Shown here: one piece after another, positions 4,922 through 59,068 of the stretch
Numbering within the stretch: the stretch's first letter is position 1
How the letters are laid out: every line of letters begins with the position of its first letter
Source of the DNA: Squalus acanthias
Lineage: Eukaryota
DNA: 64,000 bases
Reading direction: 5' to 3'
Assembly (NCBI GenBank): GCA_030390025.1
Contig: CM059449.1
Location: forward strand, 7,316,001-7,380,000
The notes under the pieces: generated by a model
The model's input: the letters and a program-made list of their open reading frames with translations, nothing else
Databases searched by the model: none
What the model was told of the DNA's origin: nothing
Made by a program: the position numbers and the translations under genes

Positions 4922-5297
4922 ATTTCCAGTGGTTAAGGGATCAAGAACAAGGGGCTATAGATGCAAGATTAAATGTAAGAGATTTAGAACGAGGTAAGAT
5001 AAACTGCTTTGCACAGAGAGTTGTGAGGCTGTGGAATTCGCTTCCAGTGTCAGTGGTTGAGGCACAATGTTCTGGTGTGACAAGTGGTTCTTACACTTTT
5101 ACCCAAGACAGGCTTCAGCCCAGTCAAAGGGTTGGAATTCAAAAGTGTAGAACGTAGCTCAGAAAATAACTATAGTACTGTCGTGAAACATATTCACACA
5201 GTCTTCACTTTATTAATTAAATACATGTGTTGAAGTGACAAATTATTAATCCTCTGGGGATTATCGTTCAAAGAGCAACTTTCGTGCGATTACACAT

Positions 5298-5886
5298 GAG
5301 ACCAGCCCAAACACCACTTGTGAGGAACGAGTGACTTTTACTCAATTCGGTAACTCAGTGAAAAACGAAAGTAAATGTTTTCAGGGACGAGCTGCTGCGA
5401 ACGTGCTTCCGCCTTACAGACCTGGTGGAAAAAGGCGGAAAATCTTCGATCAGATTGTCGGAAAGTAAGAGGTGAGTCCCAAATATTTTTCATTTCAGGG
5501 AAAGGTTTCATTCCCAGTGGGATTGGGCTGCTTTTATTAATGGTGAAAGGTCCCAATTTAATACAAGGCGTTGAACAGGAACCTGCTGGAGATTGTCCAG
5601 CGAAACGTTGAAAACTTTATAAAATGTTTCTTATCACCTTAACAGTGTCTCGAACTGGGTCCTATCGGTATTAGGGAACTGTAGGAAGAGGTCATTTTAG
5701 ACACAAACCGTCAGAGTCAAAGAGAGCGACCAGAGAGAGAGAGTCGGAAGTGAAAGGGAGGAACATAATCTTGCGACGGCCATTAAATGAAACCGCACCC
5801 GCTGGGAGTTTACATTCAAAATCAAAGAGTTCAGACCCTGTAGATAGTTGCACTATCTCCTCTCTTGAAAGAAACCTTTAATTCAA
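5298..5886 (+). promoter_or_regulatory. Putative promoter and non-coding exon 1 of BTN gene 1 (donor AG|GTGAGT at 5472), with IRF-like and Ets-IRF motifs
   Basis: Lies about 0.5-1.1 kb upstream of the signal exon; strong donor; GAAAAACGAAAGT at 5360-5372; GGAAGTGAAA at 5746-5755; the block recurs upstream of gene 2. Confidence 0.65.
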
Positions 5887-5889
5887 GAG

Positions 5890-6078
5890 GCTCTCCTGTG
5901 CTAAAACCACCCTACTATTGCACATCCCCGGATTTTCATTACTCCACCATTGGCGGCCGTGCCTTCAGCTGCCTGGGCTCTAAGGTCTGGAATTCCCTCC
6001 CTGAACCTCTCCTCCTTTCGAGATGATCCTCAAAACTTACCTGTTCGACCAAGCTTTTGCCCACCTGTCCTAATATGC
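5890..6078 (+). mobile_element. L2-like LINE 3' fragment
   Basis: IGGRAFSCLGSKVWNSLP...LKTYLFDQAF-type C-terminus. Confidence 0.7.
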
Positions 6079-6455
6079 GGCCCTTCACCTTGGTTTCTCA
6101 ATTAAAAGGATACTCGTGCTGTTTTTAAAAAACATCTTTTCTATTGTGACAAAATAAATGTAATAATCCGTAAAGTCAAGCATCTGAAAGCGGAATTCTA
6201 TTAATCTGCAAAACTCGGAATGTTTTCACAGAGTTATTGAACTAATTTCACAGTAGAGTTTATTTGGCCATAAAAAGGGGTAAATCTGTGGCGTCAGAGT
6301 TTTACATTTTACCAGAAAATTGGTAGAAGTGCCACACAGTCTGTTTAACAATGGCATGTTAATACTGCAGGTATAGCATAAGATTTATAACATAATGAGA
6401 ACTGTATCGATTTTCTGTGTATCAGGGATGGTTATTCTGCTAAGATATCACAAAG

Positions 6456-6513
6456 ATGGAAGAAACTCACCTCATTGTGCTTTTACTCCTTGGGATTTTG
6501 TTCTCTGTATATG
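6456..6513 (+). CDS. BTN gene 1 signal-peptide exon ([20 protein letters not shown]); exon starts at 6426
   Basis: Acceptor tttctgtgtatcAG at 6424-6425, ATG at 6456 in AAGATGG context, hydrophobic core, donor G|GTAAG at 6514; joins in frame to the IgV exon. Confidence 0.9.
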
Positions 6514-9500
6514 GTAAGAATATTAACATTTATTCATTTAATTATATTTATTGATAATATGCAATGCACGACATAGTATTCTGCTGTGAAGGTGGAACTG
6601 TCTCAAGATTGCAAAGACTAATTATTAAGTAAACATAGGCCGTTTCAGAATTTAACTGTTGCTTGGTCAGGAGTCTTTCTTTGCTCATCAGTCTGGAGGT
6701 TAGAAAGGCAGTTCAGGAGAAACCAGCATCTTAAAATTGTTTTGCAGGTGTAACAAATGCACAAAGTCTGACATGCTTGCAATGAAGTACTATTTTTTAA
6801 TAATATTACAGGAACTATCATGTTTCAAGATTTCAGACTGCAAGGAGGGGGAGATGAGAACATTAGTGTACTATATGTTGAAAATGCTGGTATTGAGCTA
6901 AACCTAGCTCTCAACAAAGAGTTAAATCACAGGCCAGCAGGGCTGGTGGGTGTAAATTAGGTTTCAGATAGAGGATCTAAACCATCATCTTTCAGACAAT
7001 GAAAGTTAGTTGTTGCTATGGCAATCCTATTCATTTGAATTTAGCAGACATCATTGTCAAGTTAACTTGGACTCTTTAGGGGGAGGGCAGGTGGAGCTAG
7101 CTATTTTGACTAAAATCTAATGCTGGAGTCAAACTTTTAAGAGGAGAGACAGAGAAAAAAAGGCTTTTGGAAAGGAAACTGCACAGGCAGTCTGATAGCA
7201 AAAAGCCGTAATAAGAGAGGAGACTGCAGGGACAGGAGGTTCTGGTCTAGACTGTAGACCAGAATGCAGAGGGACTATTCTGATTAAGTTAGACAACTCA
7301 CTGAAGAGCGCAGCATAGTGCATTCATTATTTATTCATGTGATCACACGGAGATAAGTTCTATCGATTTGAATTAAGTGAATCTGATCACAATTATTGTT
7401 CTGTATATTTGCCTTACTTTGGAATAAAGCAGATAATGCCTTGCCTAGTATTGACTCGGTCCGCTGTCAGATTGAAGAAATGCATATGCGAAAAACACAG
7501 ATGTGGTCCATATCGCAAGGAGTTGCATTGTTACCCGCTATTGTATGAATAGTTATAAAACAGTTGAAGTTCATTCCCATAAAATTAAGATGCTTGGACC
7601 ACTTATGACAGTGACTGACAGTCTAGAACACAATGTATTATTGTGCTGAAGTATAGATGTGTGACCCTATAAGTCTAATTGCTGTTAAGTAATCATTGGG
7701 CAAGGTTCATTAAGGACACTTAATAGTAAGCAAGGCTACTAATTTATAGTTTCTCTGTAATTATGGACATAATTGAGAGGTCGCACAACACCAGGTTATA
7801 GTCCAACAGTTTTATTTGAAATCACAAGCTTTCGGAGCTATCGATTGCCCCTTCTTCACCTGAGGAAGGGGCAATCGATAGCTCCGAAAGCTTGTGATTT
7901 CAAATAAAACTGTTGGACTATAACCTGGTGTTGTGCGACCTCTCAATTTTGTCCACCCCAGTCCAACACCGGCATCTCCGCATCATTATGGACATAGTCA
8001 TGGAAATTGAGCTAAAAATATGACTACTGCTCCCACAAAACAAATGCAATTTGATTTATTTACTCACTGTAAATCAATGGCCCTGATGATCTATTTGATG
8101 CTATGTGGGATAAAACAGTATATCTGCTTATTCACTGTGAGCAATGCCATTGGAGATCTGCTGTTTACATATTTGTTCCACTCTTCTGAAAGTCTTTTCT
8201 TATGCCCACATATGTTGTTAATCACGTTCCTGTTCCACTGTCACCAAGTTCCCTTCTCTCCCTCGACTTCACTCACATGCTGTTTCGTCTTCATTTTGCA
8301 CTTTAATTCTGCACTCTGCCTTTCCTAACAACCAATAGCTGAACAGAACAAGAGACAACTAAAAGACATAAGTGTGCATAATATCTCTCCCTATAACATG
8401 AAAGGATTATAGATTAATTTAATAGATGTATTTTCCCTTTAACTGTGCTTGACTATATAATCTAGGCTGACACAATGTAGGGAGTCCTACACCGTCAGGG
8501 ATGCCATCTTTCAGATCAGACATTAACTGAGATCCTGTCTGCCTCAGACCTCATGACACTATTCACAGAAGAGCAGGGTGTTTTCCTGATGTTCTGGCTT
8601 ACATGTCACTCTCAACTAACATCACCAAGAACAGTTTACCTGGTCATTCATTCATTTTGCTGTTGTTGGAACCTTGTTTTCTGCAAATATGCTGCCACGC
8701 ATACTCACAGTCGCTGGCTGTTGTGCACTTCAAAAGTAATCCACTGGTTTCAACATCCTGAGGATGTGATCAGGAGCTATATAAATACACGTTTGTTCTT
8801 CTCCCTTTCTCTCTAATATACTTAGACATGCACAGAAAATATGAATTAAAAACTATAGAGAGCTCCCTGATTAATAATTTGTTTGGTATTAAATTAGAAA
8901 TATTTATTGACTGAGTTCATAGTCTCTCTTCCAAAAAAGATTTTTAAAAACCCTTTTCTTCCAACAGCTACATAGAGTAATAGATTTTATGTTCTGTTCA
9001 AATTAAGGACATTTGTTTATAATTGTTTAAGAGGGGATTCTAATGACAACACTTATTTTTAAATGTAAGAATTAAGACAAGTGAAGTAATTTCATCCCCA
9101 ATAATTCAACAGGTAAATTCAGTGTTACTGGACCAACTCATCCTGTTGTAGCCATTGTGGGTGAAGATGTTCTGTTGGAATGTCAGCTTGTGCCAGATAT
9201 ATCCGTCAGCAACATGGTGGTGCGATGGCTTAAATCAGACCTTGGTTTAGCAGTACACATGTACAGAAACGGAGAAGATGATACTGCTGCTCAGGATCAT
9301 GATTACAGGGGAAGGACTGAACTGTTTAAAGATGAACTGACCAAAGGAAACGTTTCTCTTAGAATAAAGAACACAAGGGTGTTTGATGAGGGGAAATACA
9401 TATGTTTAGTTGATGATGAAACAGATTTTGAAGAAACTGTGATCGAGCTGAAAGTTGGAGGTTAGTGAACACATCTACTTACATGCTAATAACATTGGGA

Positions 9501-12500
9501 AAACAACAATTTTTTAAAACTAATTTTTTGGTCAAACTTCAAGTGCTTTTTAAAAAAGATTTCTTCATTCCCTGTTATTTTTGTGCACTGTACATTTCAT
9601 AAAGAAAATACTTTCAGCACAGACTGGTTCAACAAGAGTATTCAAAAGGACAGAAACTAAGGGATGTTCAAATTAAGGGCATTTGTTTATAATTATTTAA
9701 TTAAGGAGAATTACTAAATACAGTCAAATTTAAGACATTCATTAAGTTAAAGTAATTCCATCACACAGAATTCACGACCATCATTACTGGTTTTATCCTA
9801 GCGTATGCTATCATTATTCTAGAAAATGAAGAATTAGAAAGCAAGTTAGGTTAGCTGCTTTCAGTGTTGTCTTTGAATGTGGTTTATCCTCCATATACTT
9901 AATCTTCATATTCTGCTCATTGCTGTTTCACTTGTTTTTAATCTTTAAAAATAGTATTCCCTTCACTGTGTAAGTATGGTATACCCTACAGGCTGACTAA
10001 TGAAAGAATCAGAGAGTAAATGTCTTCTTTTGAGCTTGTTTTAAGGTTCTTTGTAATCCAAGATTAAATGAAAAAAGGACGAACTTTCACAGAATCACAG
10101 AATCCCCACAGTACAGATAGAGGCCATTTCGGCCCATCGGGCCTGCACCGACACATATCCCACCGTATTTAATCCCCCTAACACTAAGGGTCAATTTATC
10201 ATAGCCAAATCAACCTAACCCGCACATCTTTGGACTGTGGGAGGAAACCCACGCAGACACGGGGAGAATGTGCAAACTCCACACAGACAGTCACCCGGGG
10301 CCGGATTCGAACCCGGGTCCCTGGCGCTGTGAGGTAACAGTGCTAACCACTATGCCACCGTGTTGCCCAATACACCTTTGCGCATTGCTGGTTGGAAAGG
10401 CTCTTCATCAGACACCTGAATGAGTGGTGGTTGTATAGTGGTTTTAGCCATTCAGTCACTGGTGATGTTGGCGGCATTTAAACATTTGACATGACCATGA
10501 TCATTGTCGGCCTAAATATCCATGGCAGCAGGCAACACCACTGCAGCTTTCGGAGTTCCTCAGTCCTGAAGGAAGTACTTGGTATGTTTCCTGCAAGAAA
10601 CCCACACTGCTAGAGGAGATAAGCTCAACTGGATCCTGCAGTGAGTGTACTTGAGCCTCCTGATCACAAATTGCAGTGCGGTAGCTAACTGGTTGGCCCC
10701 ATTTTTAGAGATATTGGTCATCAAGGAGGTAGCGAAAAGTCTCTTGCTTCATCTTGGCTTTCTTCACAGTGACCTGCCGCTTCACCCTTTGAACTTGCGT
10801 CCCGTGTGATGGCACAGAGGGAGTGCACTTCTTTACCAGGTGTTCACCTATTTCAATACCATTGATGCTGGCAAATGCATGCTCCTTGACAGGGTTTTCA
10901 ACTGCACAAATCCTGGTCTTGATAGGCCTGTATCATTGGTGGAAAGGTTTAGACACCCGCTTAAGTTTTTCACATCTGATGGTATCACCATCCTAACTCC
11001 AGCCCCTTCATGTAAATGCAAGACTCCAGATCACGTAGCTCCCTTCTATAGCCATCTGGGCATGAATCTCGCTTCTTGGTCAATGTCCTCATGTACTCTT
11101 GACAGAAGAGGACGATGTGAGCTTTGCCTACATTCTACCACCACAAGAAGGGGAAGCTCACTTCTCCCTCTTCCCGTTGGCCTAGAACCAATAAAACAAA
11201 TCCTGGAAGCACGGTCTTCCAAGGATGAGTTGTAAAAACACAAATACATTAACTCCACCATGGTACAAAACAGAGCAAACTTCATCGACACCAGGTGGGG
11301 AGGGAGGCTAAGATTGTCCATGGATGGCACTGGGTGCATCCCAGAAGACCGCATGAATGTAGGCAAATGTAGAATGCAGGCAAAGCTCACATCGTCCTCT
11401 TCTGTCAAGAGTACATGAGAACATTGACCAAGAAGTGAGATTCCTGCCCAGATGGCTATAGAAGGGAGCTACTTGATCTGGAGTCTTGCCTGGCTGTTGC
11501 CATCAAAGATCCAACCTTGCAGCAGGCTATACTATTGTCTCACTAGATGTTGGGACGTAAAGGTAAGCTCCTCATCATAAGGGATAAGAGGTCTAATTAC
11601 AGGAAAGACCAGTGTTACTGAACCTGAGAGTATCTACTGCCAACCTAAAATTTGTAACCAGTGCAGCTACAAATAGGAATTAATCAAATTGGAAAGGTCG
11701 TTACAATCCAAGGGAACTAGTTTTATTTTTATATCTGTATCTATCTATACATATAACAATAAAATGTGACTTGGATGAAGGCAGCAATAGCAAAACCTTC
11801 CAGATTTGTACATGAAACCAAAAGAGGAGGCAGTGTAAATAATGAGAAATGGTGCAACCCGAATCAAAAGGTTTGAGGTATTTTAGTTAAATAGGCCATT
11901 AGGTGGCAGATCCAGTTCAACATGAATATTTTATGTCTGGCAGCAAGGAACCTAAAAAGTTCGACCCTGAAATTCCTGGGCCTGGGAGGGTGAAACAAGA
12001 ACGGAGTGGGGGGTGGAATTTCACGTGACCCAGTTCCACCTGGTCTCCCTCTTCTTCCTGCCCTGCCTCTTCTTCCTGCCCTGCCTCTTTTACATTGCAA
12101 AATTCTATTCTGACATCATTGAAGAGGTGGGATTGGTGGGAAGATATCCTTCAGCAGAAATTCTGCTAGTTCCGTTTTTCCTGTAGCAGGGGAAAATATG
12201 CCTGCATGAAGCAGGTAGGTTTACCATACCAAAATGGAGTTGGTTTCCGATTAATTACCATTAGGAAAATTGCTGTAGCAAAATGGTTAATCTTAAAACT
12301 GTCTTTAGCCTAATTGCCCACCTGGCTCCCCTTCTTGAGGGGGTGGCAAGATGTTGCCCAAAATTCCTGCCTCTTCTTCCCCTGGGCAGATGCCCAAGGA
12401 CTGTTGTGAATGGTGCAGTGCCTGTCTCCTTTATGTAAAGGACTCCTTTCCCTGGATTTGGGGTGGGGTCAATACCAGGTCATTCTGGTGGTTAGAAGTC

Positions 12501-15500
12501 CTGCCCCACCATATTTCTGGCAATGGAGTGAGGCTCCAGGAATTTCAGGGCCCATGTGTTTAAATGGAAGTGTTCACCTAGGGTTTATTGTAGATTTACC
12601 TACAAATTCATCAGCCCAATGCTTGGCTGTAGGGAAAACACAGTAAGGGTTCCATTTGCAGTAGGACAGAGTTCAAGTCAAAGAGGTTATATTGCTGCTA
12701 TATGAGACACTGGTTAGATCTCATTTGGAGTACTGTTTGCAGTGCTGGTCATCCAACCATTGGAGGATATTAATCCCCATAGAGGATATTGAGGCAAGCA
12801 GCAAAGATGATCCCACCAATTCAGTTGCGAGGTAAGGTTAAGGAAGTGGGAATTTTTCTTTTTGCAGAACAGCAGTTATGTTGACCTCACCGTTTGTCCT
12901 TCAAATACCTTTTCACTTGGCTAACAGAGATATATTGGGGAGATTTCCCAATTTGGCATTCCTGGCTTGAGTGTCTACTGGGAAATAGCACTCCAGCCCG
13001 GCTTCATCCAGCAACATTAGTGGACAAAAAATCAGCGGCTGGGCATGTGCAATTTCCTGATAACATAAGAAATAGGAGCAGGAGTAAGCCTATGGCCCTT
13101 CGAGCCTGCTCTGCCATTCAATAAGATCATGGCTGATCTACCTCAACTCCATGTTCCTGCCCTATCTCCATATCCCTTGATTCCCTTAGTGTCCAAAAAT
13201 CTATCTCCGCCATGAATATACTTAAAGACTGAGCATCTACAGTCCTTTGGGGTAGAGAATTCCAAAGATTCACAACCCTCTGAGTGAAGAAATTTCTCAT
13301 CTCAGTCCTAAATGACCGCCCCCTTATCCTAAAACTATGCCCCCTAGTTCTAGACACTCCAGCCAGGGGAAACAGCCTCTCGGCATCTACCTTGTCAAGC
13401 CTTCGAAAAATGTTATACGTTTTAATGAGATATCCTCTCATTCTTCTAAACTCCAGACAGTATAGGCCCATTCTACTCAAACTTTCTTCATAGGACAGCC
13501 TTCTCATCCCAGGAATCAATCTAGTGAACCTTTGTTGCACCCCCTCAAAGGCAAGTATATCCTTCCTCAGGTAAGGAGACGAAAACTGTTCACAGTACTC
13601 CAGGTGTGGTCTCAACAAAGCCCAATATAATTGTCGCAAGACTTCCTTACTCTTATACTCCATCCCCCTTGCAATAAAAGCTAACATACCATTTGCCTTC
13701 CTAATTGCTTGCTGTATCTGCATGTGTGCACTGGGTATCTTCAGCGCCGAAGCAGAAAATCTGAGTACACAGCACTTTCTGCATATTTCTTGATTTTTCA
13801 AAAATGGCCTGCCCATTCAGATTATCAGCTTTTGCAGTTTTTCTTTTTTTTTAATTTCAGAAATAATTTAATTGAAGTATTCAAAATTGTGAAACGTATT
13901 GACAAAATTGATCCTGGGGACACTCATTTAAAAATAGGAAGCTGGGAATAAAAAGGGAAAATTCAAAAGAACTCTTTTTGTAATAAACATGCGAGATATT
14001 TTTCCAGGGATGGCAAATGAAGTTTTTCTGGAGAAAGAAAAGACAAAAAAAAAAGGACAGGCTTGTTGGGTCTAATTAATTTTTTCCTGCTCCTTTTGAA
14101 ACGTTTTATGTTCTTTTCTTACTGAATCCACTCTCTTATCTATACAATAGCAAAATACTGCGGATGCTGGAAATCTGAAATAACTTATCTATACACCTTT
14201 TTTGAAAGTTATTTTTCCTTTTAAATTTTCCTGAATAGGGCCTTCACGTGCTCTCTGCTGCCAGGTATATTTACCATTAATTGGTCAGTCATACATACTT
14301 TTTCTCACCAATCTTTGCCTACAATCGTTTCTCCTCTTGCCGCCCTTCCTGAAGGCATTGATTCCCAGCTGGGCTACAATTCCATGGGTACCTACCTGGT
14401 GCCCTCTGGTACCTCATCCAAGTGGTCATAACTTAGTCTACAACTGATATCTCATTTATATTCATTAATCACCTCTGATTTTTATACAAGAACATATTTT
14501 GAGAAGAAATTTTGTTCATATCCTATTGGAGTCACGTCACAGAAATATTCTGATCATATTATCACTCAGTAACAGTAAATTAATATTTCCCATGGGTTAA
14601 AGGAAGCATTGTTAATAATAAATGTTATTTCTAAATATGTTTGTTGATCTTTGTAGGTTTGGGACGTGAGCACTGGATCCAGATAGAGGGATACAGTAAA
14701 AATGGAATTCAGCTTGTGTGTGAATCTAATGGATGGTTCCCTGAGCCAGAGATACTGTGGACTGGTGGAGATGGACAGAACTTAACAGCACAGTCTGAAA
14801 TAAGTTACCACCAGGACTCTAAAGGTCTTGTAACTGTCCAGAGCAACGTGGCTGTAACCAGAGATTCAACAAACAGGTTCAAGTGTCTCATACAGAACAA
14901 ACTGTTGAAAAAAGAACAAGAAGCAACTATTCAGATATCAGGTCTGTAAATTATAAAATGAAGTTAATTAAAGGGAATAGTGATTGATTTGCAATTTCAA
15001 TTCTGCCATACATCAAACCGGGTCTGATGGTAAACTAACTGCGCTCCAAGATATTCTCATGTTATAGTTATTGTGGGAACAGTCTTTGGTATTAATTGCA
15101 CTTGATGATTAATTTACCGCAGTATATTTGTGTAAACGAGTTGGTCCTGAAATTCCTGGATATTGGTCGACTGCCGAAAATGTGGCGCGGTGGGACTTAC
15201 TGACGCAGACTATTCCAAATCACAGGACAGGGATCATTTACATAAAGGGGGTGGGCAATTGTGCCATTTGCAGTGCTTCCTGGGTCTATCCCACCAGGGC
15301 CAGAAATAGCCAAGTAGGGTGGACTGTTACGGCCAAAGATAGAAATATTTTTAAAGAATTTTGCCCCAATGGAAGTGATGTTGTTTATTTTCTTGTGAGT
15401 TCTTCCCAAGTACCTCTGGCTTCTGGAGATTATAATCTTAACCTACTGTTACATGTTGGTGCTTAAAGCAGGCTTTGATGATTTGTTCCAGCAACAGATT

Positions 15501-18500
15501 AAATATTGATCATCTTTCTTTCTTTCTTTTTCCCCAATGGGGCTGTTTAAAAACACTGCACTTTTTACCTTTTTTAATTTATATTTTTCATTTTATGTAT
15601 TTTATTTGCAAAATTCTCCTCCTCATTATCCACTTGTGTTGCATTTGTTTCTGTCGGTATGTATCTGAAATTTTTCTTCATTTCGTTCTTGCTCTGTAAA
15701 GATGCTGTATTCTTCATTACGCTGTAGGGTTAAGTAGTACAGGAGAGATTTTCTGCTCCTGGTCAGAAGCACGTGCTGAGCATGGGTGGGAGTGGGAAAT
15801 CGGGTGCAAAGGCCAAGCGCTTGAAATGTACTGTGAGCAGCAACCTGATGCTGGGGGAGTGGGAGGCTCACGTCACTCGAGTGCACAAGCCGCAGTGGAG
15901 CTTTAAAAATGAAGGCGGTGCTTCCCTGTCCACCACCTTAAACATTCATTCCCTCCACCACCGGCGCACCGTGGCTGCAGTGTGTACCATCTACAAGATG
16001 CACTGCAGCAACTTGCCAAGACTTCTTCGACAGCACCTCCCAAACCCGCGACCTCTTCCACCAAGGGCAGCAGGCGCATGAGAACACCATCACCTCTAAA
16101 TTCCCCTCCAAGTCACACACCATCCTGACTTGGAAATATAACGCCGTTACTTCATCATCGCTGGGTCAAAATCCTAACAGCACTGTGGGAGTGTCTTCAC
16201 CACACGGACTGCAGTGGTTCAAGACGGAGGCTCACCACCACCTTCTCAAGGGCAATTAGGGATGGGCAATAAATGCTGGCCTTGCCAGCGACGCCACATC
16301 CCAGGAATGAATATATAAAAAAAAATCACTGCAGTTCTTTGTAGCTGTTTGATAAAACTGAGTGGCTTGCTCGGCCACTTTAGAGGGCAGTTAAGAGTCA
16401 ACCATGTTGGTGTAGGACTGGAGTCACATATCGGCCAGATCAGGATGGCAGGTTTCCTTCCCTGAAGGACATTAGTGAACTAATTGGGTTTTTATGACAA
16501 TCTGACTGCTTCATGGTCACTTTTTCATTGTTTAAAAAAAAAGAAACAAAATTTTACCATGAAATGAACTGAATTCAAATTCTCAGTGGGATTTGAACAC
16601 ATTTCACAACATTGAAATTTAGTCAATTAATTCTCTTTTTTTGTATGTTTTAATACTTTCATTTAAAGTTACTGTTTGAAGGCCTCAGCTGTCAAAATCC
16701 TAGTGGGCGGTGGAATTCTCTACCCCAGAGGACTGCGGAGGCTCAGTCGTTGAGTATATTCAAGACAGAGATCGATAGATTTTTGGATATTAAGGGAACC
16801 AAGGGATATGGGGATAGTGCAGGAAAGTGGAGTTGAGGTAGAAGATCAGCCATGATCTTGAAAGGCGGAGTAGGCTCGAGGGGCAGAATGGCCGACTCCT
16901 GCTCCTATTTCTTGTGTTCTTGTGAAGTAGAGTTTAACTCTGGGCAGGTTTAAAACAGTTGGAAACTCAGCTGCTGCTGCAGAAATCAGGCCAGGGCTAT
17001 TTTAACTCCCGGACCTCATTAATATGCCACCAGTCCACCTCCTGCCTGTGGAAAATTGGACAACCTATGGCTGCCCACCGGCATGCAGGTAGGTGTGGGG
17101 AAAGGGTGGAGGTCAGGGAGTCTGGGGTAGGGGGGCATAAACTTTCCTTGTGGGACCTGGAGGAGCACGCCTGCTCCTCCCAGCCCCACAAAGATAAGTG
17201 AATAACTTACCTTTCAAGGCCTCTTCACATCCCTGTCCTCTTCTGACTTGGCTCAGCCTGGCTTCCCAGAGTTAAAATTACAGTCTAGGTCCAAGAGCGC
17301 AATTTTTAAAGAAGGACCCCGCCAGCTTTGGGCGGGTGGATTCGTCTCGCATTAAGAAGCCGGTGCAAAAATCGTGGTTGGCGGGATCCGAGGGGCTCGA
17401 GAACAGGTAAGTAACCTGGGCGATTTTAACTGCCCACTCACCCGGCGGAAACCGTAGTCTTTAACCCGGGGTCATAAACTTTTAACTATGTTTTGCTAAT
17501 ATTGGGCATTTGAAAAGAATGATTTCTGTGAGATATGTTACAGGTAATATTATTATCTAACTCACTGACATTTACTTTGCAGACGATTTCTTCCCGGCTG
17601 TCTCAGGCTGGCTGGTGTTTCTATCTGTGTTCCTCTGTCTTCTAATAGTAGCTTTTGCTACTGGGATCTTTCGGACTGTGAAACAACATAGATACATCAA
17701 AGGTACGGTCTCAGTCTAACAGTGACAATGGAGATTATAGATTCAGGATTGAACAGAAATGTGGAAAGAGAACCAGGTTTTTTTATTCTCATGTTAAATT
17801 TGGAAGAGAAAATAACATGGAAGGAAAAAGGTTTGCAGGGCTACGGGGAAAGGGCGGGGGAGTGGGACCAGCTGAGGTGCTCCTGCAGAGAGCCGGCACG
17901 GACTCGACGGGCTGAAAGGCCTCCTTCTGTGCTGTAACCATTCTATGATTCTAAGTGAAATATAAGCAAATACATTTCCACTTGTCGGCTGACTGGAAGA
18001 CTCTTCAATATTTATTTTCAATAAATCTTTCATACAGTTAGGTTTGTGCAGTTAAGCTGCCCATTGAATAATTGTGATTATGTTACTGTTACAGGAAATG
18101 TACCTTTTAACATTTCCTTCAGCAAGCTGTGAGAAAGGATAATTCAGAATCAAACTCAAATGTAGAAAACAAAACCAGAAAAAAGCTGGAAATACTAAGT
18201 AGGTGAGGCAGCGTCTATGCAGAAAACAGAAGTCCCGTCAACATTTCAGGTCTCGGACCATTCCTCAGGATCTATGAAATAAATTCTTTAGATATCTACA
18301 CTCTGCCTTTTTTAGCCCCCTTACCTCTGCTAACTCTCATCTTGATCCAGACTTTTCTGTGATTCCCAGTCATGATTACATTTTAATTCCTGCTAACTTA
18401 TTTTTTTCCCCTTCAGTATTACAGGTTGAGCGTCCAAAATCCGGAGTTCCGGAATCTGGAATGTTCCGGAATCCAGACGATTGGTGGCAGGGTCGTCCGG

Positions 18501-30500: not shown

Positions 30501-31263
30501 AAAATCCCTCCTAAAAGGCTTCCTGTTGAAACCCTGCCGCTCCCTATTTGCTGCCTCTCTGTAAAGTGCTTTCAGGCATCTTTGTGTCGGCCAGGAGTGC
30601 TACAGAGGTGTAAGTGGTTGTTCTCCGAGTTGTGATTCTTGCTACAATTCCTCTTGCTTTATTTGGTATTTACAGTTGATTGGTTTAATCTAGCCTCAGA
30701 ATCTGTACTTCAGCTTTAACTCTGCCCTTTTCTTCCCAGTCTCTGTAACCCTGGATACAGAAACAGCAAATCCATGGCTTGAGGTGTCCAAGGATCTGAA
30801 GAAGGTGAAATTGACCCAGACAGCGAGGAGTCTCCCTGAAAATGAGGAGAGGTTTACAGCCTGGGAATCTGTGCTGGGATCAGAGGGATTCACATCGGGG
30901 AGTCACTACTGGGAGGTGGAGGTGGTGGGGAATCGCCGCTGGACTCTGGGAGTGGCCACAGAGTCTGTGGAGAGGAAGACAGAGATGAAACTGATACCGG
31001 GGAATGGATTCTGGACCATCGGGCAGGTTGAAGATCAATTTCAGGCAAACTCCGCGAATCAATCAGATATCCCTGCCCGTGAGATTCCCAGGAAGATTGG
31101 AGTTTATCTCAGTTATGAGTCCAGGATAGTTTCATTCTACAGTGCAAACACAAAGTCTTACCTCTACACTTTCACTGGGAATGAATTCACAGAGAAAGTT
31201 TATCCTTTTTTCTACACGGCTCATCGTAACAAATGGCTGAGAATCTGTCCAGTGCAGCATTAG
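6456..31263 (+). CDS. Butyrophilin-like gene 1 (complete, 8 coding exons, 473 aa: SP-IgV-IgC-TM-juxtamembrane-B30.2)
   Basis: Exon lengths 58+348+285+120+33+27+27+524 = 1422 nt, open through to TAG at 31261-31263. All introns are GT-AG and phase 1. Domain order is diagnostic of the BTN/BTNL family; the orthologue cannot be assigned from sequence alone. Confidence 0.93.
7772..7984 (+). mobile_element. Penelope-derived palindromic element with hammerhead motif and TSD ATTATGGACATA
   Basis: Perfect 84-bp inverted arms (7771-7854 / 7865-7948) plus a short tail; TSD at 7760-7771 and 7985-7996; second copy at about 39495-39693. Confidence 0.85.
7856..7897 (+). ncRNA. Minimal type I hammerhead ribozyme motif
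   Basis: Helix I TCAC/GTGA, core CTGAGGA (7860-7866), helix II GGGGC/GCTCC, GAAA (7886-7889), palindromic helix III (AAGCTT) with a CUU triplet. Confidence 0.75.
8440..8800 (+). mobile_element. Degenerate DeuSINE (SacSINE1/AmnSINE1-like)
   Basis: Similar to the Deu domain in the better-preserved copy at 22135-22525 (tctttcagat...cactatt...gaagagcaggg). Confidence 0.7.
9113..9460 (+). CDS. BTN gene 1 IgV exon
   Basis: [23 protein letters not shown]...VRW...[21 protein letters not shown]...DEGKYIC; 348 nt, caacAG acceptor, GTTAGT donor. Confidence 0.97.
10088..10368 (-). mobile_element. HE1-type tRNA-derived V-SINE
   Basis: Minus strand: A box TGGCATAGTGG, B box GGTTCGAATCC, V domain TGTGTGGAGTTTGCACATTCTCCCCGTGTCTGCGTGGGTTTCC, CR1-like (ATTCTGTG)n tail. 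Confidence 0.92.
10495..10930 (+). mobile_element. Highly decayed Tx1-like endonuclease fragment
   Basis: ttcctgcaagaaacccacact (FLQETHT) and flanks are colinear with 2840-3290. Confidence 0.6.
11018..11489. repeat. Inverted repeat, arms about 120 bp (11018-11138 / 11369-11489), spacer about 230 bp
   Basis: agactccagatcacgtagctccc...cattctac is reverse-complementary to gtagaatg...gggagctacttgatctggagtct with few mismatches. Confidence 0.9.
13062..13727 (-). mobile_element. CR1/L3 3' fragment
   Basis: RPHLEYC...TRGHS...WNSLP plus 3' UTR on the minus strand. Confidence 0.92.
14657..14941 (+). CDS. BTN gene 1 IgC exon
   Basis: [12 protein letters not shown]...[18 protein letters not shown]...FKCLIQN; 285 nt, ttgtAG acceptor, GT at 14942. 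Confidence 0.97.
15925..16325 (+). mobile_element. CR1-group LINE 3' fragment (same family as 1-1910)
   Basis: [23 protein letters not shown] and the shared 3' tail. Confidence 0.9.
16705..16925 (+). mobile_element. CR1/L3 3' end fragment
   Basis: WNSLP region, 3' UTR and (TTCTTGTG)n tail. Confidence 0.85.
17583..17702 (+). CDS. BTN gene 1 transmembrane exon ([40 protein letters not shown])
   Basis: tttactttgcAG acceptor, FFP..S.W motif followed by a hydrophobic span and basic stop-transfer residues, donor AG|GTACG; missing from the ORF track. Confidence 0.93.
18422..18708. mobile_element. Tc1/mariner-superfamily (pogo/Tigger-like) MITE
   Basis: TIRs CAGGTTGAGCGTCC / GGACACTCGACCTG flanked by TA on both sides; internal TCCGGA-rich palindromic subrepeats. 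Confidence 0.8.
19303..19335 (+). CDS. BTN gene 1 juxtamembrane micro-exon A ([11 protein letters not shown]), 33 nt
   Basis: gaatttttccAG acceptor, G|GTAAG donor, frame-preserving phase 1. Confidence 0.8.
19508..20128 (-). mobile_element. CR1-group LINE 3' fragment (family of 1-1910)
   Basis: [11 protein letters not shown]...[15 protein letters not shown] on the minus strand, plus tail. Confidence 0.92.
20636..21740 (+). mobile_element. Internal CR1 fragment (20636-20828) followed by a decayed CR1-group LINE
   Basis: [19 protein letters not shown] segment, then sequence colinear with 1-420 and 24900-25750 but heavily mutated. Confidence 0.75.
22135..22525 (-). mobile_element. DeuSINE (SacSINE1-like)
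   Basis: Minus strand: tRNA-like head TGGCTCAGTGG, Deu core GTAAAAGATCCCATGGCACTATTTCGAAGAAGAGCAGGGGAGTTCT...ATTTATCCCTCAACCAACATCAC. Confidence 0.88.
22646..22672 (+). CDS. BTN gene 1 juxtamembrane micro-exon B (DQWKPLVES), 27 nt
   Basis: Long T tract plus AG at 22644-22645, CAG|GTATG donor, frame-preserving. Confidence 0.8.
22792..23524. mobile_element. Non-autonomous DNA transposon (MITE), possibly PIF/Harbinger-like
   Basis: 18-bp TIRs GGGTCAGAATTTGCTGTC / GACAGCAAATTCTGGCCC; no clean TSD. Confidence 0.7.
24080..24632 (+). mobile_element. CR1/L3 fragment, interrupted by the LINE below; its tail resumes near 26470-26552
   Basis: KKAYGIL...TRGH...[11 protein letters not shown]; aagtggaacattgggtagctc...ttctatgaa 3' UTR further downstream. 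Confidence 0.75.
24633..26465 (-). mobile_element. Internally deleted CR1-group LINE (endonuclease to 3' tail)
   Basis: [35 protein letters not shown] on the minus strand, joined directly to the 3' tail. Confidence 0.85.
27256..27282 (+). CDS. BTN gene 1 juxtamembrane micro-exon C (DWKKICECK), 27 nt
   Basis: tttctgttttcAG acceptor, AAG|GTAAG donor; a WKK-containing 27-nt exon just before B30.2 resembles mammalian BTNs. Confidence 0.85.
27720..28400 (+). mobile_element. Decayed L2-like LINE fragment
   Basis: Pyrimidine-rich sequence with NYQSISKL and LQSNF..HS-like RT remnants. Confidence 0.55.
28405..29147 (+). mobile_element. CR1/L3 3' fragment
   Basis: ORF 28423-28998 ([18 protein letters not shown]) plus 3' UTR. 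Confidence 0.92.
29155..30160 (-). mobile_element. Decayed CR1-group LINE
   Basis: Colinear with 1-960 in reverse complement. Confidence 0.75.
30740..31263 (+). CDS. BTN gene 1 B30.2 (PRY/SPRY) terminal exon
   Basis: [17 protein letters not shown]...[18 protein letters not shown]...WTLGV...KIGVYLSYE...VSFY...VYPFF; ccttttcttcccAG acceptor, TAG stop. Confidence 0.97.
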
Positions 31264-31517: not shown

Positions 31518-31585
31518 AACTAGGAACAGATTAAAGATCCCATATTTCATCAGATACAGAGTGGGGAGTGAAGGTTTCAGCCCTT

Positions 31586-32405
31586 TAAACCACTGATAAG
31601 CCAGGAGAACATCAGTGATGGATTTGCCACCCATCTGCTACCAGATTATAAAAGCATCCCTGTAACCTTAGGTCTTTAATTAGTTTGCAGTCTGTTGATG
31701 TCACTTGTGTCTGTCAGCACAGAATCAGATCCACAGTTCACTTTGAGAAAGTGTGTCAGATTGTTGGCCACCATAATGGTGATGTAGCACTGTACAAGAA
31801 CATTGGCGAGAGATTTTCCTCAAGTGTGGGATCACTACAGTGAGTGGGACTTTTGCACACTGGGCCAACCACACACTGACCCTGTCCCATTTTCTTGGGT
31901 ATGGTCAACTTCCAGCGTTATCTCCGCTCTTCCACTGGGACTCTGCTGCTGCGGGATTGGGAAATGTTGAGCTTCTGTAGTGGGACATCTGTTGCAGCAA
32001 CTGAAATAACTGCAGCCAGTTTAAAGGGGGCAGAAGTCTGCTAAACGTTTCAGATCAATATTTAGAATTGCCACTTAGTGAGCCAGTTGGAAGAAAAATA
32101 GCAGTCAGAAGATTTGGAAGAGGGAGAGGTGGCTATATCTCGTACCTGGCATCAAGAAACTCTTGACACACTCTTGCACAGTGTTACATCACCATTATGG
32201 TGGCCAACAATCTGACACACTTTCTCTTAAAGTGAACTGTAGATCTGATTCTGTGCTGACAGACACAAGTGACATCAACAGACTACAAACTAATTGACGA
32301 CCCAAGGTCTCAGGTTACAAGAACGCTTTTATAATCTGGTAGCAGATGGGTGGCAAATCCATCACTTACCGGAGCCTGATGGTCTCCTGGCTTATCAGTG
32401 GTTTA
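31586..32405. repeat. Long inverted repeat, arms about 215-230 bp (31586-31799 / 32173-32405), spacer about 370 bp
   Basis: aaccactgataagccaggaga...gatgtagcactgtacaaga matches the reverse complement of tcttgcacagtgttacatc...tctcctggcttatcagtggtt. Confidence 0.92.
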
Positions 32406-36615: not shown

Positions 36616-36894
36616 ACGAAAGGATACTTGTACAAGTTTGCTGGTTCCTTAGACTGAAATGAAAAGCAAACGTTTAATTCCAATGGGGAGCTGCCATTTG
36701 GCTCATTGTGTGTCCATGTTCTATTCCATTAATGTACTTGGACCATTGATCGATCTAATTAACCAGAGCGGCCTCTTCCCAGCCTGTCCGATGTCACCCC
36801 TTATGGTCCTTCCATTCCCTCAAGGCTAAGGTGTGCCGGTGCTGTTTGCTTCATGTCTGTGCTGCAGTTCTGGTGTGAAAGCAGCTTGAATCCA

Positions 36895-40514: not shown

Positions 40515-42534
40515 AGCTGTGGGACCTGGTCCGGTCACTCGAATTGGTGGCTGTCTGGTGAAATCTCCATCTGACTCCATCTCCTTCACTTTCCTGGGGA
40601 CTGGAAGAGGAAGGACCAGAATTGACCAGCTTTATATTTCCCGGGCGTACCTCTCCTGCATTCTGGCCTCTTCCATGCAGTCGGTGCCGTGCTCGGATCA
40701 CCACCTGCTGTGGATGGAGCTTGTTCTACTCTGTGTGTGGGTGGGATCCGTATCCTGACACTTCAACAAACTGCTGCTGGAGGATGAGTGGTTCCGGGAG
40801 TCGTTCCGTCACTTTGCGTGGGTCAACTGGAGAAGGAGGAAGGGAGGCTTCTCCTGCTTGAGGCTATGTGCTGGGACGTGAGCCAGTATGTGCATGGGTT
40901 GACTAAGAGGCAGGAGTCTGAGATCAGGTGGTTGGAGAAGGAGGTGCTTCATTTTCCTAGATTGCTGGACAGGACTGCTCCGAGTGCTGTCCACAGGGGT
41001 CGAGTGCTGGTCATAAACCAACTATTGCTGCTATGTTATGGTACCGGTTGGTCACTTTAAAAGGAAGCTTGTCGACTTCTGGGACAAAAGGAAGCATTGG
41101 GTCACCGCTGTAGTGCTGAGTCTCCCACTTAGGGAGGGCAGTCAGACGCTGGTGTGCATTCGCACCCAAGTAGCAACTGTCCACCTTCAGGCCCTGCAGT
41201 GAGAACTGAACGAGAGGATCCTCCTAGATGCTCTGCGCTGGTGACGTATCTCTTTCGCCAGCTACATGGCCTGAATTATGACATTCAGCGCCTGTTTGTT
41301 AAGTTGCTGAATATCCACACGTTCTTGCAGGATCTGATCAGGGTCTGGAATATGGTTGCCTTCAGCTGGAGCTCTCTCCCATCAGGAGCAGTGGCCATCC
41401 AATGGGAGCTCCTGCTCAGGAATCCGCACCTCCGCATGATCGGTTTCGGCGATAGAGAGGAGAGCTCTGAATGCGAAGATAACCAAAGTCAGGGACGCAC
41501 TGGATGGCGGAGGGCAGGCTGGCTGTTGCCAGAGGCATTGACAGAACGGATGTCATGTTGTTACATCTGGCCCGCGACCAAAGCCATCGAGGTAGTAATA
41601 GTTGCACTTGGTCCTGACTCCACTCGGTGTGTCGAGGAGGCTCAAGCATGTGAAGCGATCTCGTCTGAGCTGACCTGCGTTCAGACAGAGTTTCTTATCG
41701 GCGCAAGGCCCCAAAACCTCCCTCGGGAGCCTACACTTAACAACTTCAGCCGTCTCTCGGAAATTCCCTTGTGCCATTCCACTCTGTCCGGAGGGGTTTC
41801 CTGTACAGGTTGCTCCTGCACACTCTCCACTTCCTTGCCCTCCTCTTCCATCCGGACAAGCCTTGGCATGCCATCTTGCCATCCTGCGGAGGCGGAGGTC
41901 CCCAATGGTGGGTTCTCTATGCAGAGTCCTCTCCTGTACCATTGGGGATCTGGGTCGAGAGTGTTGCACGGAGCTGTACAGACAAACCATTTTTTAAGTC
42001 ACTTCACGGACTCCCAGGCTGCCTGCAACTTTTGCGGCCTGGTTGAGTCCGTGTTCAATGTCTAAATGGAATGTGAGAGGTTGCAGCCCCTCTTCTATTA
42101 GTTAAACGGGTTACTCCTCAACCTCTGGCTCCACTTAAGTCCCATGCTTCTAATCTTTGGCCACCTGGTGTGGGGGAGGGGAGTCGGAGGACCTTCTCAT
42201 GGGTCTGCTCCAAGATGGCCCATTGGTGGGGGCGTTGCTCTGGCTGCCTGCCTCTTTTCCGTGGTCATGTCCGTGCGCAGGTGGCCCTGGAGAAGGAGCA
42301 CATGGTGTCTGCCGGTACGCGTGAGGCTTTGAGCGACCGGTGGGCACCGCAGGGACTGGAGTGCGTAGTCGACACTGTAAATAATATTATGATTTAATTG
42401 ATTAAGTTTCCTTTCTTTTGTATGATTTGGGTTTTATTAGTTGTGCCCTCTAAAAAGGGGGCACTTTTGTCAGGCTTTTTGGGTTGATGACACTGAGGCA
42501 ACCCAGAGTCTCCTTAAGAGTTTAATTAAAAGAG
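40515..42534 (+). mobile_element. Internally deleted Tx1-like LINE (endonuclease end, post-RT region, 3' UTR)
   Basis: TRIDQLYIS, SDHH, RVLHGAV, CNFCGLVESVFNV, DRWAPQGLEC. Confidence 0.88.
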
Positions 42535-42538
42535 ACAC

Positions 42539-43105
42539 GAGACCAGCCCAAACACCACTTGTGAGGAACGAGTGACTTTTACTCAATTCGGTAACTCAGT
42601 GAAAAACGAAAGTAAAAGTTTTCAGGGACGAGCTGCTGCGAACGTGTTTACGCCTTACAGACCTGGTGGAAAAAGGCGGAAAATCTTCGATCAGATTGTC
42701 GGAAAGTAAGAGGTGAGTCCCAAATATTTTTCATTCCCAGTGGGATTGGGCTGCTTTTATTAATGGTGAAAGGTCCCAATTTAATACAAGGCGTTGAACG
42801 GGAACCTGCTGGAGATTGTCCAGCGAAACGTTGAAAACGTTATAAAATGTCTCTAATCACCTTAACAGTGTCTCGAACTGGGTCCTATCGGTATAAGGGA
42901 ACTGTAGGAAGAGGTTATTTTAGACATAAACCGTTATAGTCAAAGAGAGCGGCCAGAAAGACACGGAAGTGAAAAGGAGGAACATAATCTTGCGACGGCC
43001 ATTAAATGAAACCGCACCCGCTGGGAGTTTACATTTAAAGTCAAAGAGTTCAGACCCTGTAGATAGTTGCGCTATCTCCTCTCTTAAAATAAACCTTTAA
43101 TCCAA
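42539..43105 (+). promoter_or_regulatory. Second copy of the promoter/exon-1 block (putative 5' end of BTN gene 2; donor at 42713)
   Basis: About 95% identical by eye to 5298-5886 apart from an 18-nt deletion; both IRF-type motifs retained (GGAAGTGAAA at 42965-42974). Confidence 0.65.
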
Positions 43106-44668
43106 TAGCTTCATGTTAAGTATTCTTTAATCTGCACAATGCAGTTTGCTACTTTGCTTAAGTACAGTCTCTTCAAAGTGTGGTCGGGAACATTAATTTC
43201 AATCTCTGAAGTGTCATACGAGCTGATCCACGGTGACACTGCACACAATAGTTCAGTCGATGTTAGTAAAATGTACAATAATACAGACGCTGGAAATCTG
43301 AAACAAAAGCAGAATAAGTTGGGAAACGCACAACAGATGAAGCAACTTCTATTGCAGAAAAGGATCTCCATTTCGGGGTGTGTCCTCTTCATCAGAACTG
43401 ATAAAGGGTTATAGACACTTCAAGTGCCCGAACACGAAGGCAAATATTCTTGGAGCCATTGGAAACTATTTCAACCTATTGGGAGCCTTTGCGAGGCTGA
43501 AGGGGAGGGGAAATAAACGACAAGTACAGATTAACTGAATGAAAACCCAGTGTGGAGGCACAAAATGAAATCTGCAGACCAGTGACCTTGTTTGATGGCG
43601 GATGAAGTGGAAGTGGCCCTGCTTCCCAATCTGTATCCCCCTCCCCATGGGACTGCTGTGATAACAACGTACTTTTTGTCTGTATTCAATTTTTGATTTG
43701 GATTTTTTTATGGCTCCAATCAGCATGCAAGGGCTTAAAATCCCACAAGCAAGAAGAGTACTTTTGGAACAGAAAAACTATCAGCTCAGAGACCAGGCAG
43801 GCTGGCTGTGAGTTACTAAGAAAAGCACAATGATTTGTCTAAAGTGTTACCTTTCCACAAGACTCTTTGCAGCTCTCTGTCCTTAACTATAGCTGCCATT
43901 TCATCACTGGTTAGTCTTTAAATAAAGGGTAGTTCTTAGTCTTTAAATAAAGGGTAGTTCTTAGTCTTTTAAATAGTCTGTTCGATAAAGGGATGACAGG
44001 AATGGCAGGGCAGCTCAGTCTAGCGGAGTGCACATCCTGTGGCATATGGAAAGTCATGGACGCTTCGCGTTGCATGGATGACTACATGTGCAGTAAGTGT
44101 CACCAGCTGCAACGACTCGAGCGACGGTTTACGGAGCTTGAGCGGCGACTGGAGTCACTGTGGTGCATCCGCGAGGCTGAGATCTACGTGGATAGCATGT
44201 TTAGTGAGGTGGTCACCCCGCAGCCTCAGCGAGCAAGTGGGTGACCACCAGGCAGGCAGTGCAGGAGGCCCCAGAGGGCATCTCGCTCTCCAACCGGTAT
44301 TCTATTCTGAGTACTGGTGGGGGCAATGGACCCGCTGAGGAGTGCAGTCAGAGCCAAGTCCTCGGCACCACAGGTGGCTCCGCTGCACAGTGGGGGAGGA
44401 TAAATAGCGGAAGAGCAATAGTGGTAGGGGATTCAATAGTGAGGGGAGCAGACAGGCGTTTCTGCGGACGCAGACGTGACTCCAGGATGGTATGTTGCCT
44501 CCCTGGTGCCAGGGTCAAGGATGCCACCGAACGGTTGCAGAGCATTCTAGGGGGAGAGGGTGAACAGCCAGATGTCGTGGTCCATATCAGTACCAATGAC
44601 ATAGGTAGAAAGAGGGATGAGGTCCTGCAGGCAGGGTTTAGGGAGCTAGGAGTCAGATTAAAAAACAG

Positions 44669-57115: not shown

Positions 57116-59010
57116 ATTAATGTTTGCTAAGCAGCCTCTTTATGCTGCGGCAGTCAATTTCTCAGAATGTGACAAATGAATTAAAATAAATTAAAGAAAA
57201 GAAATGAGAGAAAAATGATCCAGTCAGTGTTGAGTTAGCTGACCTCAGCCAGGGCCTCATTGCTTGTATACATGTGGGCATACCGACGAGTCAGTTAATC
57301 TAATCAACTACGTGGTGTGAGTGTTATCTGGCACTTGTCTGTCCAAGCCTGGATTTTGACCAGGTCTTGTTGTAAGCTGGCATAGGCTGTCTCAGAGCTG
57401 TTGTGAATGGAGATGAACACTGACCAGCCCCACTCCTGACAGTATGACAGAATGAAGGTCATTGATGAAGCGGCTACAGATGGTTGTGCCAAGGATGCTC
57501 CCCTATGGAACTCTGGCAGAGATACCCTGGGATTTTGATGATAAGCCCTCGGCAACCATAACCATCTTACTGTGTGTCAAGTATGACTTGAGCCACTGAA
57601 GAGCTTTCTCATTGACTTGCTTGCTGATGCTTAGTTTGGGTTCTACCAGAACCATTCAGCTCTAGGTCTCATCACATCCTTGATCCAGACATGGATACAA
57701 GAGCTGGCTGCCAGAGGACCAGTGAGAATAGCTGCCCTTGACATCAAGGTAGCATTTGCCCGGATATGGTACCAAGGAGAGCTAGCAAAATTGATGTCAG
57801 TGGGTACAGTCAAGGTTAAGGACTCGCCTACAATTTACCAGATTTATTGAATACCATGGTGCAATTTTACCTCTCAAACTTTGGGTTGCTAGTCCAGTAG
57901 CATAATCACTATGCTACCATACCCTGATCACTAAAGTTAATGGAGGGAAAATCATAGCGAGGGTATGGAATATCCACATATATACTCTCAGCAGAGATGT
58001 GCACGCAACATGTGAGTGAAACAAAACGAGAGAGGTAGACAGACGAGGAGAATGCCAGAAACAGTAGGGTAATTTTTCTAATTGGTTATGCCCAGTTTTC
58101 ATGTAGAAAATGGGCATTTCTGACTGTGCATCACTCACTTTTCTGGTGGGGAAATTGTTTGGCACCTGAAAACAGGTGGGAGTTTAATTTTAATATGAAA
58201 TGTCATTGCAAATTCAATTGAATGTCTACATAATTTCAGAGTGATTGTGCCTGAATTACTCCAAGTGATCTAGTCATTCATATAAAATGGCTTCTAGAAT
58301 TGCTAGGGTCTGAGGTTCATTTAAAGAGATGTTCAAGAAGACTGAACAATTTTCAGTCCATTTCTCCACATGATTTGTTTTTATTTGCTTTTTGCTGTTA
58401 TCATTTTGGAGCATTTGTGGTGATTACTGTAATACACCCTTACAACAATGGGTTTCCCCATGGGAATCCCCCTATGTCTGAGCTCTTCAGAGGGTGAGAA
58501 GGACTAATGGAGGGTAGCCAGGCAAGTCAGAGATGTTGAGTGTTCACCATCAGTATGGCCACACCAGATTCGACAGGCACAGCGCACTGACCTCCATTCA
58601 TCAGAGGAGCAGCTCCTGTTGGCACCAAATCTTAAAGGAGGCAACACACTGGATAATATTAATATCATACATGAAGGCCTGACTCATAATGCAGGATCAT
58701 TCTTCAGATGCACACCATGATTGCACATCATTTTATGAAAGACTCCCAAGAGAAACACACAGCTCAATACATAGCGGTAAAAGAAATGCCACACAAATGT
58801 TCATAAGATATAATACAAACACAGTTCAGGCCCAGAGAGTTTTATATTTCACTAAAACTTAGTATAAATGGTGCACAGCCTGTTTAACACTGGTATGTGA
58901 GCACTGTACATATAACATAAGATTTTAGACATAATTTATGACAATTAATGAGGCTATCACTTCTCTCTCTCTCTCTCTCAGGCGATGGTTCTTCGGCTAA
59001 GATCTCAAAG

Positions 59011-59068
59011 ATGAAAGAAGTTCACCACATTGTGCTATTACTGCTTGTGATTCTAATCTCAGTATATG
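59011..59068 (+). CDS. BTN-like gene 2 signal-peptide exon (MKEVHHIVLLLLVILISVYG); gene continues beyond the window
   Basis: 47/58 nt identical to the gene 1 signal exon, same length and phase, (CT)n-CAG acceptor at 58980-58981, G|GTAAG donor, homologous upstream intron sequence. Confidence 0.88.

Follow-up and report, generated by a model that had tools for sequence, protein, structure and literature searches.

Introduction

Conversion between paralogues is a known mechanism, with precedents in HBD/HBB, SIGLEC11/16, chicken BG and BTN3A. In galago, cat and microbat, HBD owes its beta-like promoters to conversion by HBB (PMC4390247). The conversion between SIGLEC11 and SIGLEC16 covers upstream and 5′UTR DNA, recurs per primate lineage, and is proposed to alter expression (PMC5701461). 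Among the butyrophilins and their relatives, the chicken BG region contains hybrid genes, the promoter/5′UTR and 3′ parts have separate histories, and the 5′ end tracks expression (PMC4046983). The IgV domains of hominoid BTN3A are reported to be under concerted evolution (Afrache 2017, as cited in PMC6790196), and the BTN3A promoters are highly homologous (PMC7753138). Proteins of this family can act as heteromers, with BTNL3/BTNL8, Btnl1/Btnl6 and BTN3A1/BTN3A2 as the precedents (PMC5798315).

Butyrophilins are recorded in cartilaginous fish, in a paper whose text at hand does not contain the word 'promoter' (PMC12841164). The literature searched (mainly open papers) yielded no description of a 5′ block shared between shark butyrophilins. 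Such a block is described here.

The two butyrophilin genes

The window analysed is a 64-kb stretch of DNA (C26:7316001-7380000) from a genome of 3.7 Gb. It contains a complete gene of the immune-regulating butyrophilin family (gene A) and the 5′ part of a second one (gene B), both on the plus strand. The signal-peptide exon of gene A (6426..6513, ATG at 6456) is defined by the sequence and by spliced contigs. It is joined to the IgV exon (9113..9460, a Pfam V-set match) through 6513 to 9113, and the IgC exon (14657..14941) is of the butyrophilin-type C2-set_3. These are followed by a predicted transmembrane exon (17583..17702), three short putative heptad-type exons (19303-19335, 22646-22672 and 27256-27282), placed by their AG/GT borders and frame, and the B30.2 (PRY/SPRY) exon, which includes the stop codon (30740..31263), is recognized by Pfam and is present in public runs. 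For gene B, the signal-peptide exon (58982..59068, 87 nt) is located by the sequence and by length accounting on contigs, and the IgV, IgC, transmembrane and B30.2 exons are outside the window, at C26:7384856-7436900.

The domain plan is that of a butyrophilin, with a signal peptide, IgV and IgC domains, one transmembrane segment and a PRY+SPRY B30.2 domain, to which the three candidate in-frame heptad exons of 27-33 nt would be added. The closest named proteins are elasmobranch butyrophilin-like models, the top one at 97% identity over the IgV domain, among 77 matches of 203 candidates.

Intron 1 has 954 nt in gene A and 16.3 kb in gene B. Nested stacks of LINEs, which we take to be CR1-like, enlarge introns 1 and 2 of gene B (43990-53900 and 59920-63760). 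Palindromic MITE-like elements and long inverted repeats are located at 7764-7986, 39491-39700, 11018-11489 and 31578-32413. A CpG island at 36880-37950, which contains tandem repeats rich in CCAAT and, near 37266, a splice donor on the minus strand, is positioned head to head with gene B; its paralogue at C26:7450012 is 76% identical. A D-type gene (C26:7286001-7305000) directly precedes gene A and has IgC, transmembrane and B30.2 exons, the last with a stop codon; no IgV exon was found in this interval.

A near-identical block at the 5′ ends of both genes

The block extends over 5294..5889 in gene A and 42535..43108 in gene B (plus strand in both), and comprises the 5′UTR exon 1 and the start of intron 1, with a putative core promoter. 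In a global alignment of 5298-5886 with 42539-43105, 545 positions match, 22 are substituted and two gaps (18 and 4 nt) are needed, corresponding to 96.1% identity over the aligned columns and 92.3% when gap columns are counted. The earlier note had given roughly 25 substitutions, an 18-nt indel and about 95% identity; the near-identity is real, while the substitutions number 22 and the 4-nt gap had been overlooked. The 18-nt deletion (42728-42729, against 5486-5503) is flanked by short direct repeats and is private to this B copy.

The exons of the same gene pair are much less alike. The coding part of the signal-peptide exon has 47/58 identical positions (81%, reproducing exactly the figure given earlier), and the identities are 83.6% for IgV, 84.4% for IgC and 78.1% for B30.2. 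The block has 22 differences in 567 positions, against 115 in 719 for the signal-peptide, IgV and IgC exons together (Fisher P 3e-13). The intron flanks were said to be more diverged still, and this holds: the old A/B intron homology ahead of the signal-peptide exon (6296..6425, plus strand) is 75% identical (97/129), and the other flanks show patches of 73-89% at best or are unalignable.

Both boundaries of the block are sharp. The DNA upstream of it is completely different between A and B. In four B copies (B1, B2, B3 and B5) the 5′ edge is abutted by the 3′ end of a LINE, presumably Tx1-like (41563..42534, plus strand, in the window); in B4, B6 and B7 another LINE breaks in at the equivalent of position 5351. 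On the 3′ side, A genes have a high-copy repeat fragment directly after the block (5890..6075, plus strand), which we take to be L2-like and which has very high contig depth and matches elsewhere. B copies have instead a B-type continuation of intron 1 (43108..43990, plus strand) that is absent from A; its first stretch is also found in two copies on C1 (see below).

Exon 1 is spliced to both gene types

Exon 1 of the block (5338..5471, plus strand) is non-coding and ends at a GT donor at 5472; the equivalent donor of the gene B copy follows 42712. One contig reaches 5338, which is a lower bound for the 5′ end, the contigs being simplified graphs, so the exon has at least 134 nt. The first 418 nt of intron 1 are also in the block.

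This exon is spliced to both A-type and B-type genes. Four public runs, drawn from two studies, supplied contigs that were placed on the 5′ part of gene A; none of the runs is recorded as RNA, and they were counted as transcripts because their contigs skip GT..AG introns. The gene A joints, 5471 to 6426 (GT..AG) and 6513 to 9113, are present in runs X1 and X5, one from each study. The block donor is also joined to a B-type IgV exon in X1, X2 and X3, again from two studies. At the 13 listed sites, the letters of this joint agree with B1 at all 13 and with A1 at none, and five B copies fit them equally well. In X1, the 143 unplaced nucleotides are the sum of 27 from IgV, 87 from the signal-peptide exon of B and 29 from exon 1. 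The contig that reaches 5338 bears three variants that occur together only in B1. A failure of 42712 to splice to 58982 had been named beforehand as evidence against a shared 5′ end; splicing to the B type is instead supported by three runs. Both gene types are found in 3/4 runs, X5 having A letters only among those listed, and the contigs are no measure of expression.

The block had been called a promoter block. It does provide the spliced exon 1 of both gene types, but it consists mostly of 5′UTR exon and intron 1, and no more than 44 of its shared bases precede the most distant 5′ base seen in a transcript. Little of the shared DNA may lie ahead of the start site.

Sequence signs of regulation

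A first spliced exon lies inside the block and its CpG is retained, while contigs of this kind cannot show a transcription start. The observed/expected CpG ratio is 0.81-1.08 in the 12 copies of the cluster, with 0.80 for 5294..5889, and falls to 0.17 and 0.52 in those on C1. The median over 108 tiles of the window is 0.35, and 5/108 are as high as the block.

Three motifs were scored against consensus sequences that we take to be the accepted ones. An IRF/ISRE-like motif (5362..5372, plus strand) is identical in 12/12 copies (shuffled-block P ~0.05), and an Ets-IRF (EICE-like) motif in intron 1 (5746..5755, plus strand) is found in 9/12 (shuffle P ~0.05). A GAS-like motif (5494..5502, plus strand) is present in 8/12 copies, not above chance (P 0.25); the 18-nt deletion removes it from the B copy of the window, and it is altered in B4, B6 and B7. 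Taken singly, the three motifs are close to chance level or at it. The block has four IRF half-sites (P 0.01 by shuffling), and the exon 1 donor is invariant in 12/12 copies. CCAAT/ATTGG boxes occur in the block, without an established SXY module. A and B are predicted to respond to the same inputs, with the invariant IRF-like motif as a candidate.

Copies of the block in the genome

A genome-wide search, the counts of which are lower bounds, gave 15 candidates, and all 15 belong to 12 copies in the butyrophilin cluster (one split by an insertion) and two old copies on C1. The cluster copies are 89-100% identical and are located at C26:6.0-7.36 Mb and on contig C2738; the C1 copies are 68-72% identical. 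Genome searches with the C1 copies or with the 5′ part of the block as query found no further family members. The block is not a dispersed high-copy repeat unrelated to butyrophilin 5′ ends, an outcome that the earlier note had named as speaking against its reading. The block also differs from dispersed repeats, solo LTRs and MITEs in its few copies, and no TIR or target duplication was seen at the gene copies. An LTR reading, considered for the TG...CA ends, was rejected on the absence of a target duplication and the low copy number.

The block heads all five A-type and seven B-type genes of the cluster. A copy is located upstream of 5/5 A-type and 6/6 B-type IgV exons, and the twelfth heads B5 (C26:6012275-5987286), in which the block, intron 1 and the transmembrane exon are present and searches for signal-peptide, IgV and IgC exons found none. 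The IgV exon of A2 (C26:6266044-6266388) has two stop codons. The C- and D-type genes, with 50-54% IgV identity, have no block match upstream in the 8-60 kb searched for each.

Tandem A-B units recur in both orientations over C26:6.0-7.6 Mb and C2738. The latter contig resembles an inverted C26:6.0-6.3 Mb and may be an allele of it, and some of its copies may be alleles of those on C26. More distant IgV/IgC genes are numerous at C26:0-2.5 and 5.4-5.6 Mb.

The two C1 copies (C1:200216264-200216914 and C1:25770257-25770866) correspond to the 3′ part of the block and are CpG-depleted. Each has up to ~190 nt of a dispersed TIR-bearing element, followed, at an identical junction, by block homologue from ~5415. 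No butyrophilin exons were found within 100 kb around each copy, and 80 of the 147 unmasked sense-strand ORFs of these surroundings were scanned, with a Myb/SANT domain as the one Pfam match. The MITE left end had no match near the gene copies. The C1 copies are best read as old captured fragments, possibly a Pack-type capture. The reverse origin is conceivable.

The block is younger than the duplication

The IgV+IgC tree was made with 5 rows of our own and 48 of the 77 matches (49 picked, one dropped for coverage). It has separate A and B clades (support 98, starred, for B; 88, unstarred, for A), and since each includes sharks and batoids, the A/B duplication predates the shark-ray split. The mean A-B dS over IgV+IgC is 0.35 and the mean dN 0.14 (30 pairs). 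In the block, the p distance between types is 0.052 (range 0.028-0.076, 35 pairs), and 0.046 for the intron part alone. With a dS of 0.35 against ~0.05 in the block, and lineages older than the shark-ray split, the block is ~7 times younger than the duplication.

The site patterns agree with this. Over 594 columns and 12 copies of the block, one variant is fixed between A and B and 10 are shared; over 726 exon columns, the fixed ones number 104 and none is shared (Fisher 1.5e-13). Exon divergence is 16-19% between types and 0.4-3.3% within types, while the block diverges by 4.8% within B, much as it does between types (5.2%), and by a not much lower 3.2% within A. Among A genes, the flanks show 2.0% upstream and 2.7% and 1.0% downstream, compared to the 3.2% of the block.

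The trees of the block and of the exons are discordant, each with full support. The exon tree separates A from B (100/100), whereas the block tree places A with B1, B2, B3 and B5 against B4, B6 and B7 (100/100). B as a single clade is weakly rejected in the block tree (p-AU 0.045); A forms one side of a 55/85 branch. The block thus shows the following properties of a conversion tract: ~5% divergence against a dS of 35% and introns at ~25%, a tree conflict, and few fixed but many shared variants. The earlier note had proposed a homogenisation or copying of the block that took place long after the gene duplication, and divergence, site classes and tree conflict all support this.

A second shared module, the B30.2 exon of B and C

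The B30.2 exon of B1 is 93.3% identical to that of a neighboring C gene, and the Ig exons of this pair are 67% identical. The likeness extends over ~3 kb at 91.5% (C26:7434880-7438400 and 7280070-7283575). In a B30.2 tree of 31 rows, one C label of which was assigned by identity and not by the tree, the B and C rows of one species group together in Heptranchias (99, starred), Stegostoma (99, starred), Heterodontus (88), Carcharodon (87) and the present species (87). As exceptions, the Cetorhinus pair is in one open fork, Mustelus is unpaired, and three of the B rows group in a clade of their own. Nine of the 10 A rows are in one clade (90). The B/C clade also takes in additional B30.2 copies, located at C26:8.2-8.7 and 11.8 Mb. 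The pairing by species indicates that module-wise conversion is a habit of this cluster, and this raises the odds that the 5′ block was converted repeatedly as well.

Proposed mechanism and direction

That the block was transferred after the duplication by some recombination route, the three readings with a transfer taken together, is very likely. The main reading, to which we give a probability of roughly 0.6, is mainly one replacement of gene-conversion type from B to A. The block would be the shared 5′ module of the two lineages (the non-coding exon 1 with the beginning of intron 1 and, probably, the core promoter), copied by non-allelic recombination, probably from a B gene to an A gene. 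The tract would have replaced the older homologous 5′ end of A in place, and its edges may have been set where transposon insertions break homology, by the LINE upstream in B and the repeat fragment on the 3′ side in A. Multiplication of the A-B tandem unit would have followed, possibly with further patchy exchange.

B to A is the simplest direction on the sequences. Beyond the block, the C1 copies go on with the 3′ flank of the B type, and at 3-4 of 7 polarisable sites the outgroup state is retained in B4, B6 and B7, whereas A has a derived letter in common with the remaining B copies. The outgroup-rooted block tree does not fix the root. The B4/B6/B7 branch reflects decay in part, because 8 of the 22 changes private to these copies are at CpG sites. 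Between B1 and B4/B6/B7, divergence is 3.6-4.4% in the 3′ flank and 6.4-7.4% in the block, which counts against the main reading.

Alternative explanations

The readings differ in how often, and by which route, the block moved. A and B may have kept converting it in both directions since the duplication, with no single transplant; we consider this standing concerted evolution unlikely, though worth serious attention. The 10 shared variants and the 139 incompatible site pairs of 903 exceed the single-tree expectation (P 0.03-0.05), the nearest neighbors of the A copies shift along the block, and the species-wise pairing of B/C B30.2 exons in five sharks implies repeated conversion in the cluster. 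Simulating 500 times on a tree that keeps A together gave P 0.054 for the 10 shared sites and 0.028 for the incompatibility. Repeated A/B exchange of the block is suggested by these patterns, but the recombination tests are borderline (PHI-like P 0.011, 0.14 and 0.095; best conversion tract P 0.0015 uncorrected among 66 pairs, ~0.1 corrected), monophyly of A is not rejected in the block tree, and exchange within A or within B could yield equal incompatibility. The array also contains the B-then-A order from which a deletion or unequal crossover between head-to-tail genes could have fused the 5′ end of B to the coding exons of A, the hybrid, of a kind known from chicken BG genes, then replacing the older A copies. 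Such a breakpoint needs no homology, and the short intron 1 of A (954 nt) and its abrupt junction at the repeat fragment would fit. A fusion of this kind predicts B-type DNA upstream of A, however. A genes have their own flanks, and the CpG island found ahead of 5/5 B copies examined is absent from the upstream stretches of A that were searched. Replacement in place is for these reasons favored over a deletion hybrid, which we judge improbable. The 5′ flank of A was sought near the B copies and not found, and the search for a trace of the old 5′ end of A or the old upstream flank of B gave none.

The remaining explanations dispense with transfer between the two genes. Independent delivery of the block to A and B by a mobile element is very improbable: the two C1 copies do join a TIR-bearing MITE left end to the block homologue at one identical point, and the A copy runs TG...CA, yet there are just 14-15 candidates genome-wide and the gene copies show no MITE end or target duplication. 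The C1 copies themselves, 70% identical and CpG-depleted, look more like old captured fragments, and it is the B flank that continues the C1 sequence. Strong purifying selection could be held responsible for the IRF-like motif and the donor, invariant in 12/12 copies. Nevertheless, within-type variation is higher in the block (3.2% in A, 4.8% in B) than in the exons (0.4-3.3%), and the block puts up with deletions and one insertion, so selection alone cannot explain its likeness; with synonymous sites and other introns diverged by 25-35%, it is an even poorer candidate than the mobile element. Least credible of all is a collapsed or chimeric repeat in the assembly. A tandem array of recent origin, with a similar contig that has no placement (C2738), would invite such an error, but the 12 copies have distinct variants, and the splicing of the exon to both gene types is seen in independent contigs of two studies.

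A broader picture, which we regard as rather doubtful, would make the cluster a modular network under lasting domain-specific conversion. B would share its promoter and exon 1 with A and its B30.2 signalling domain with C, across three distinct ectodomains. The A/B island would be re-homogenised in every shark and ray lineage, keeping an A/B heteromer co-expressed; such a heteromer would be a forerunner of the butyrophilin pairs that gamma-delta T cells have as ligands.

Comparison with known systems

Under the main reading, B-to-A replacement of the 5′ end, the shark cluster resembles HBD/HBB. In both, one of two old tandem paralogues received a promoter-proximal tract from the other, which for HBD happened separately in several lineages; the HBD tracts enter coding exons, whereas the shark tract ends in intron 1 and includes no coding base, and the shark paralogues are older (PMC4390247). 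SIGLEC11/16 are likewise immune receptor paralogues with converted 5′ DNA, but their tract of ~2 kb includes the ligand-binding V exon, while the shark ectodomains stay distinct (84%) (PMC5701461). BTN3A resembles the shark cluster in module-wise homogenisation and shared promoters, and differs in being a set of young primate duplicates with homogenised IgV domains; the shark block is without an established SXY module (PMC6790196, PMC7753138).

Chicken BG is, like the shark cluster, a tandem array of the butyrophilin family. It has two unlike promoter classes over similar V exons, and shows no promoter recombination; in the shark, one 5′ module serves two unlike ectodomains (PMC4046983). The BTN/BTNL heteromers have the same domain plan, and shark A and B stand in tandem pairs (PMC5798315). 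A comparison of A/B with BTNL3/BTNL8, an obligate heteromer that engages the gamma-delta TCR, would be a functional analogy only.

If the transfer took place as proposed, two different proteins would come under similar control. What differs from the known systems is a tract without coding bases between very old paralogues. It would be an unusually clean case, in which a purely non-coding 5′ module moved between paralogues older than the shark-ray split, with splicing evidence for both of its users.
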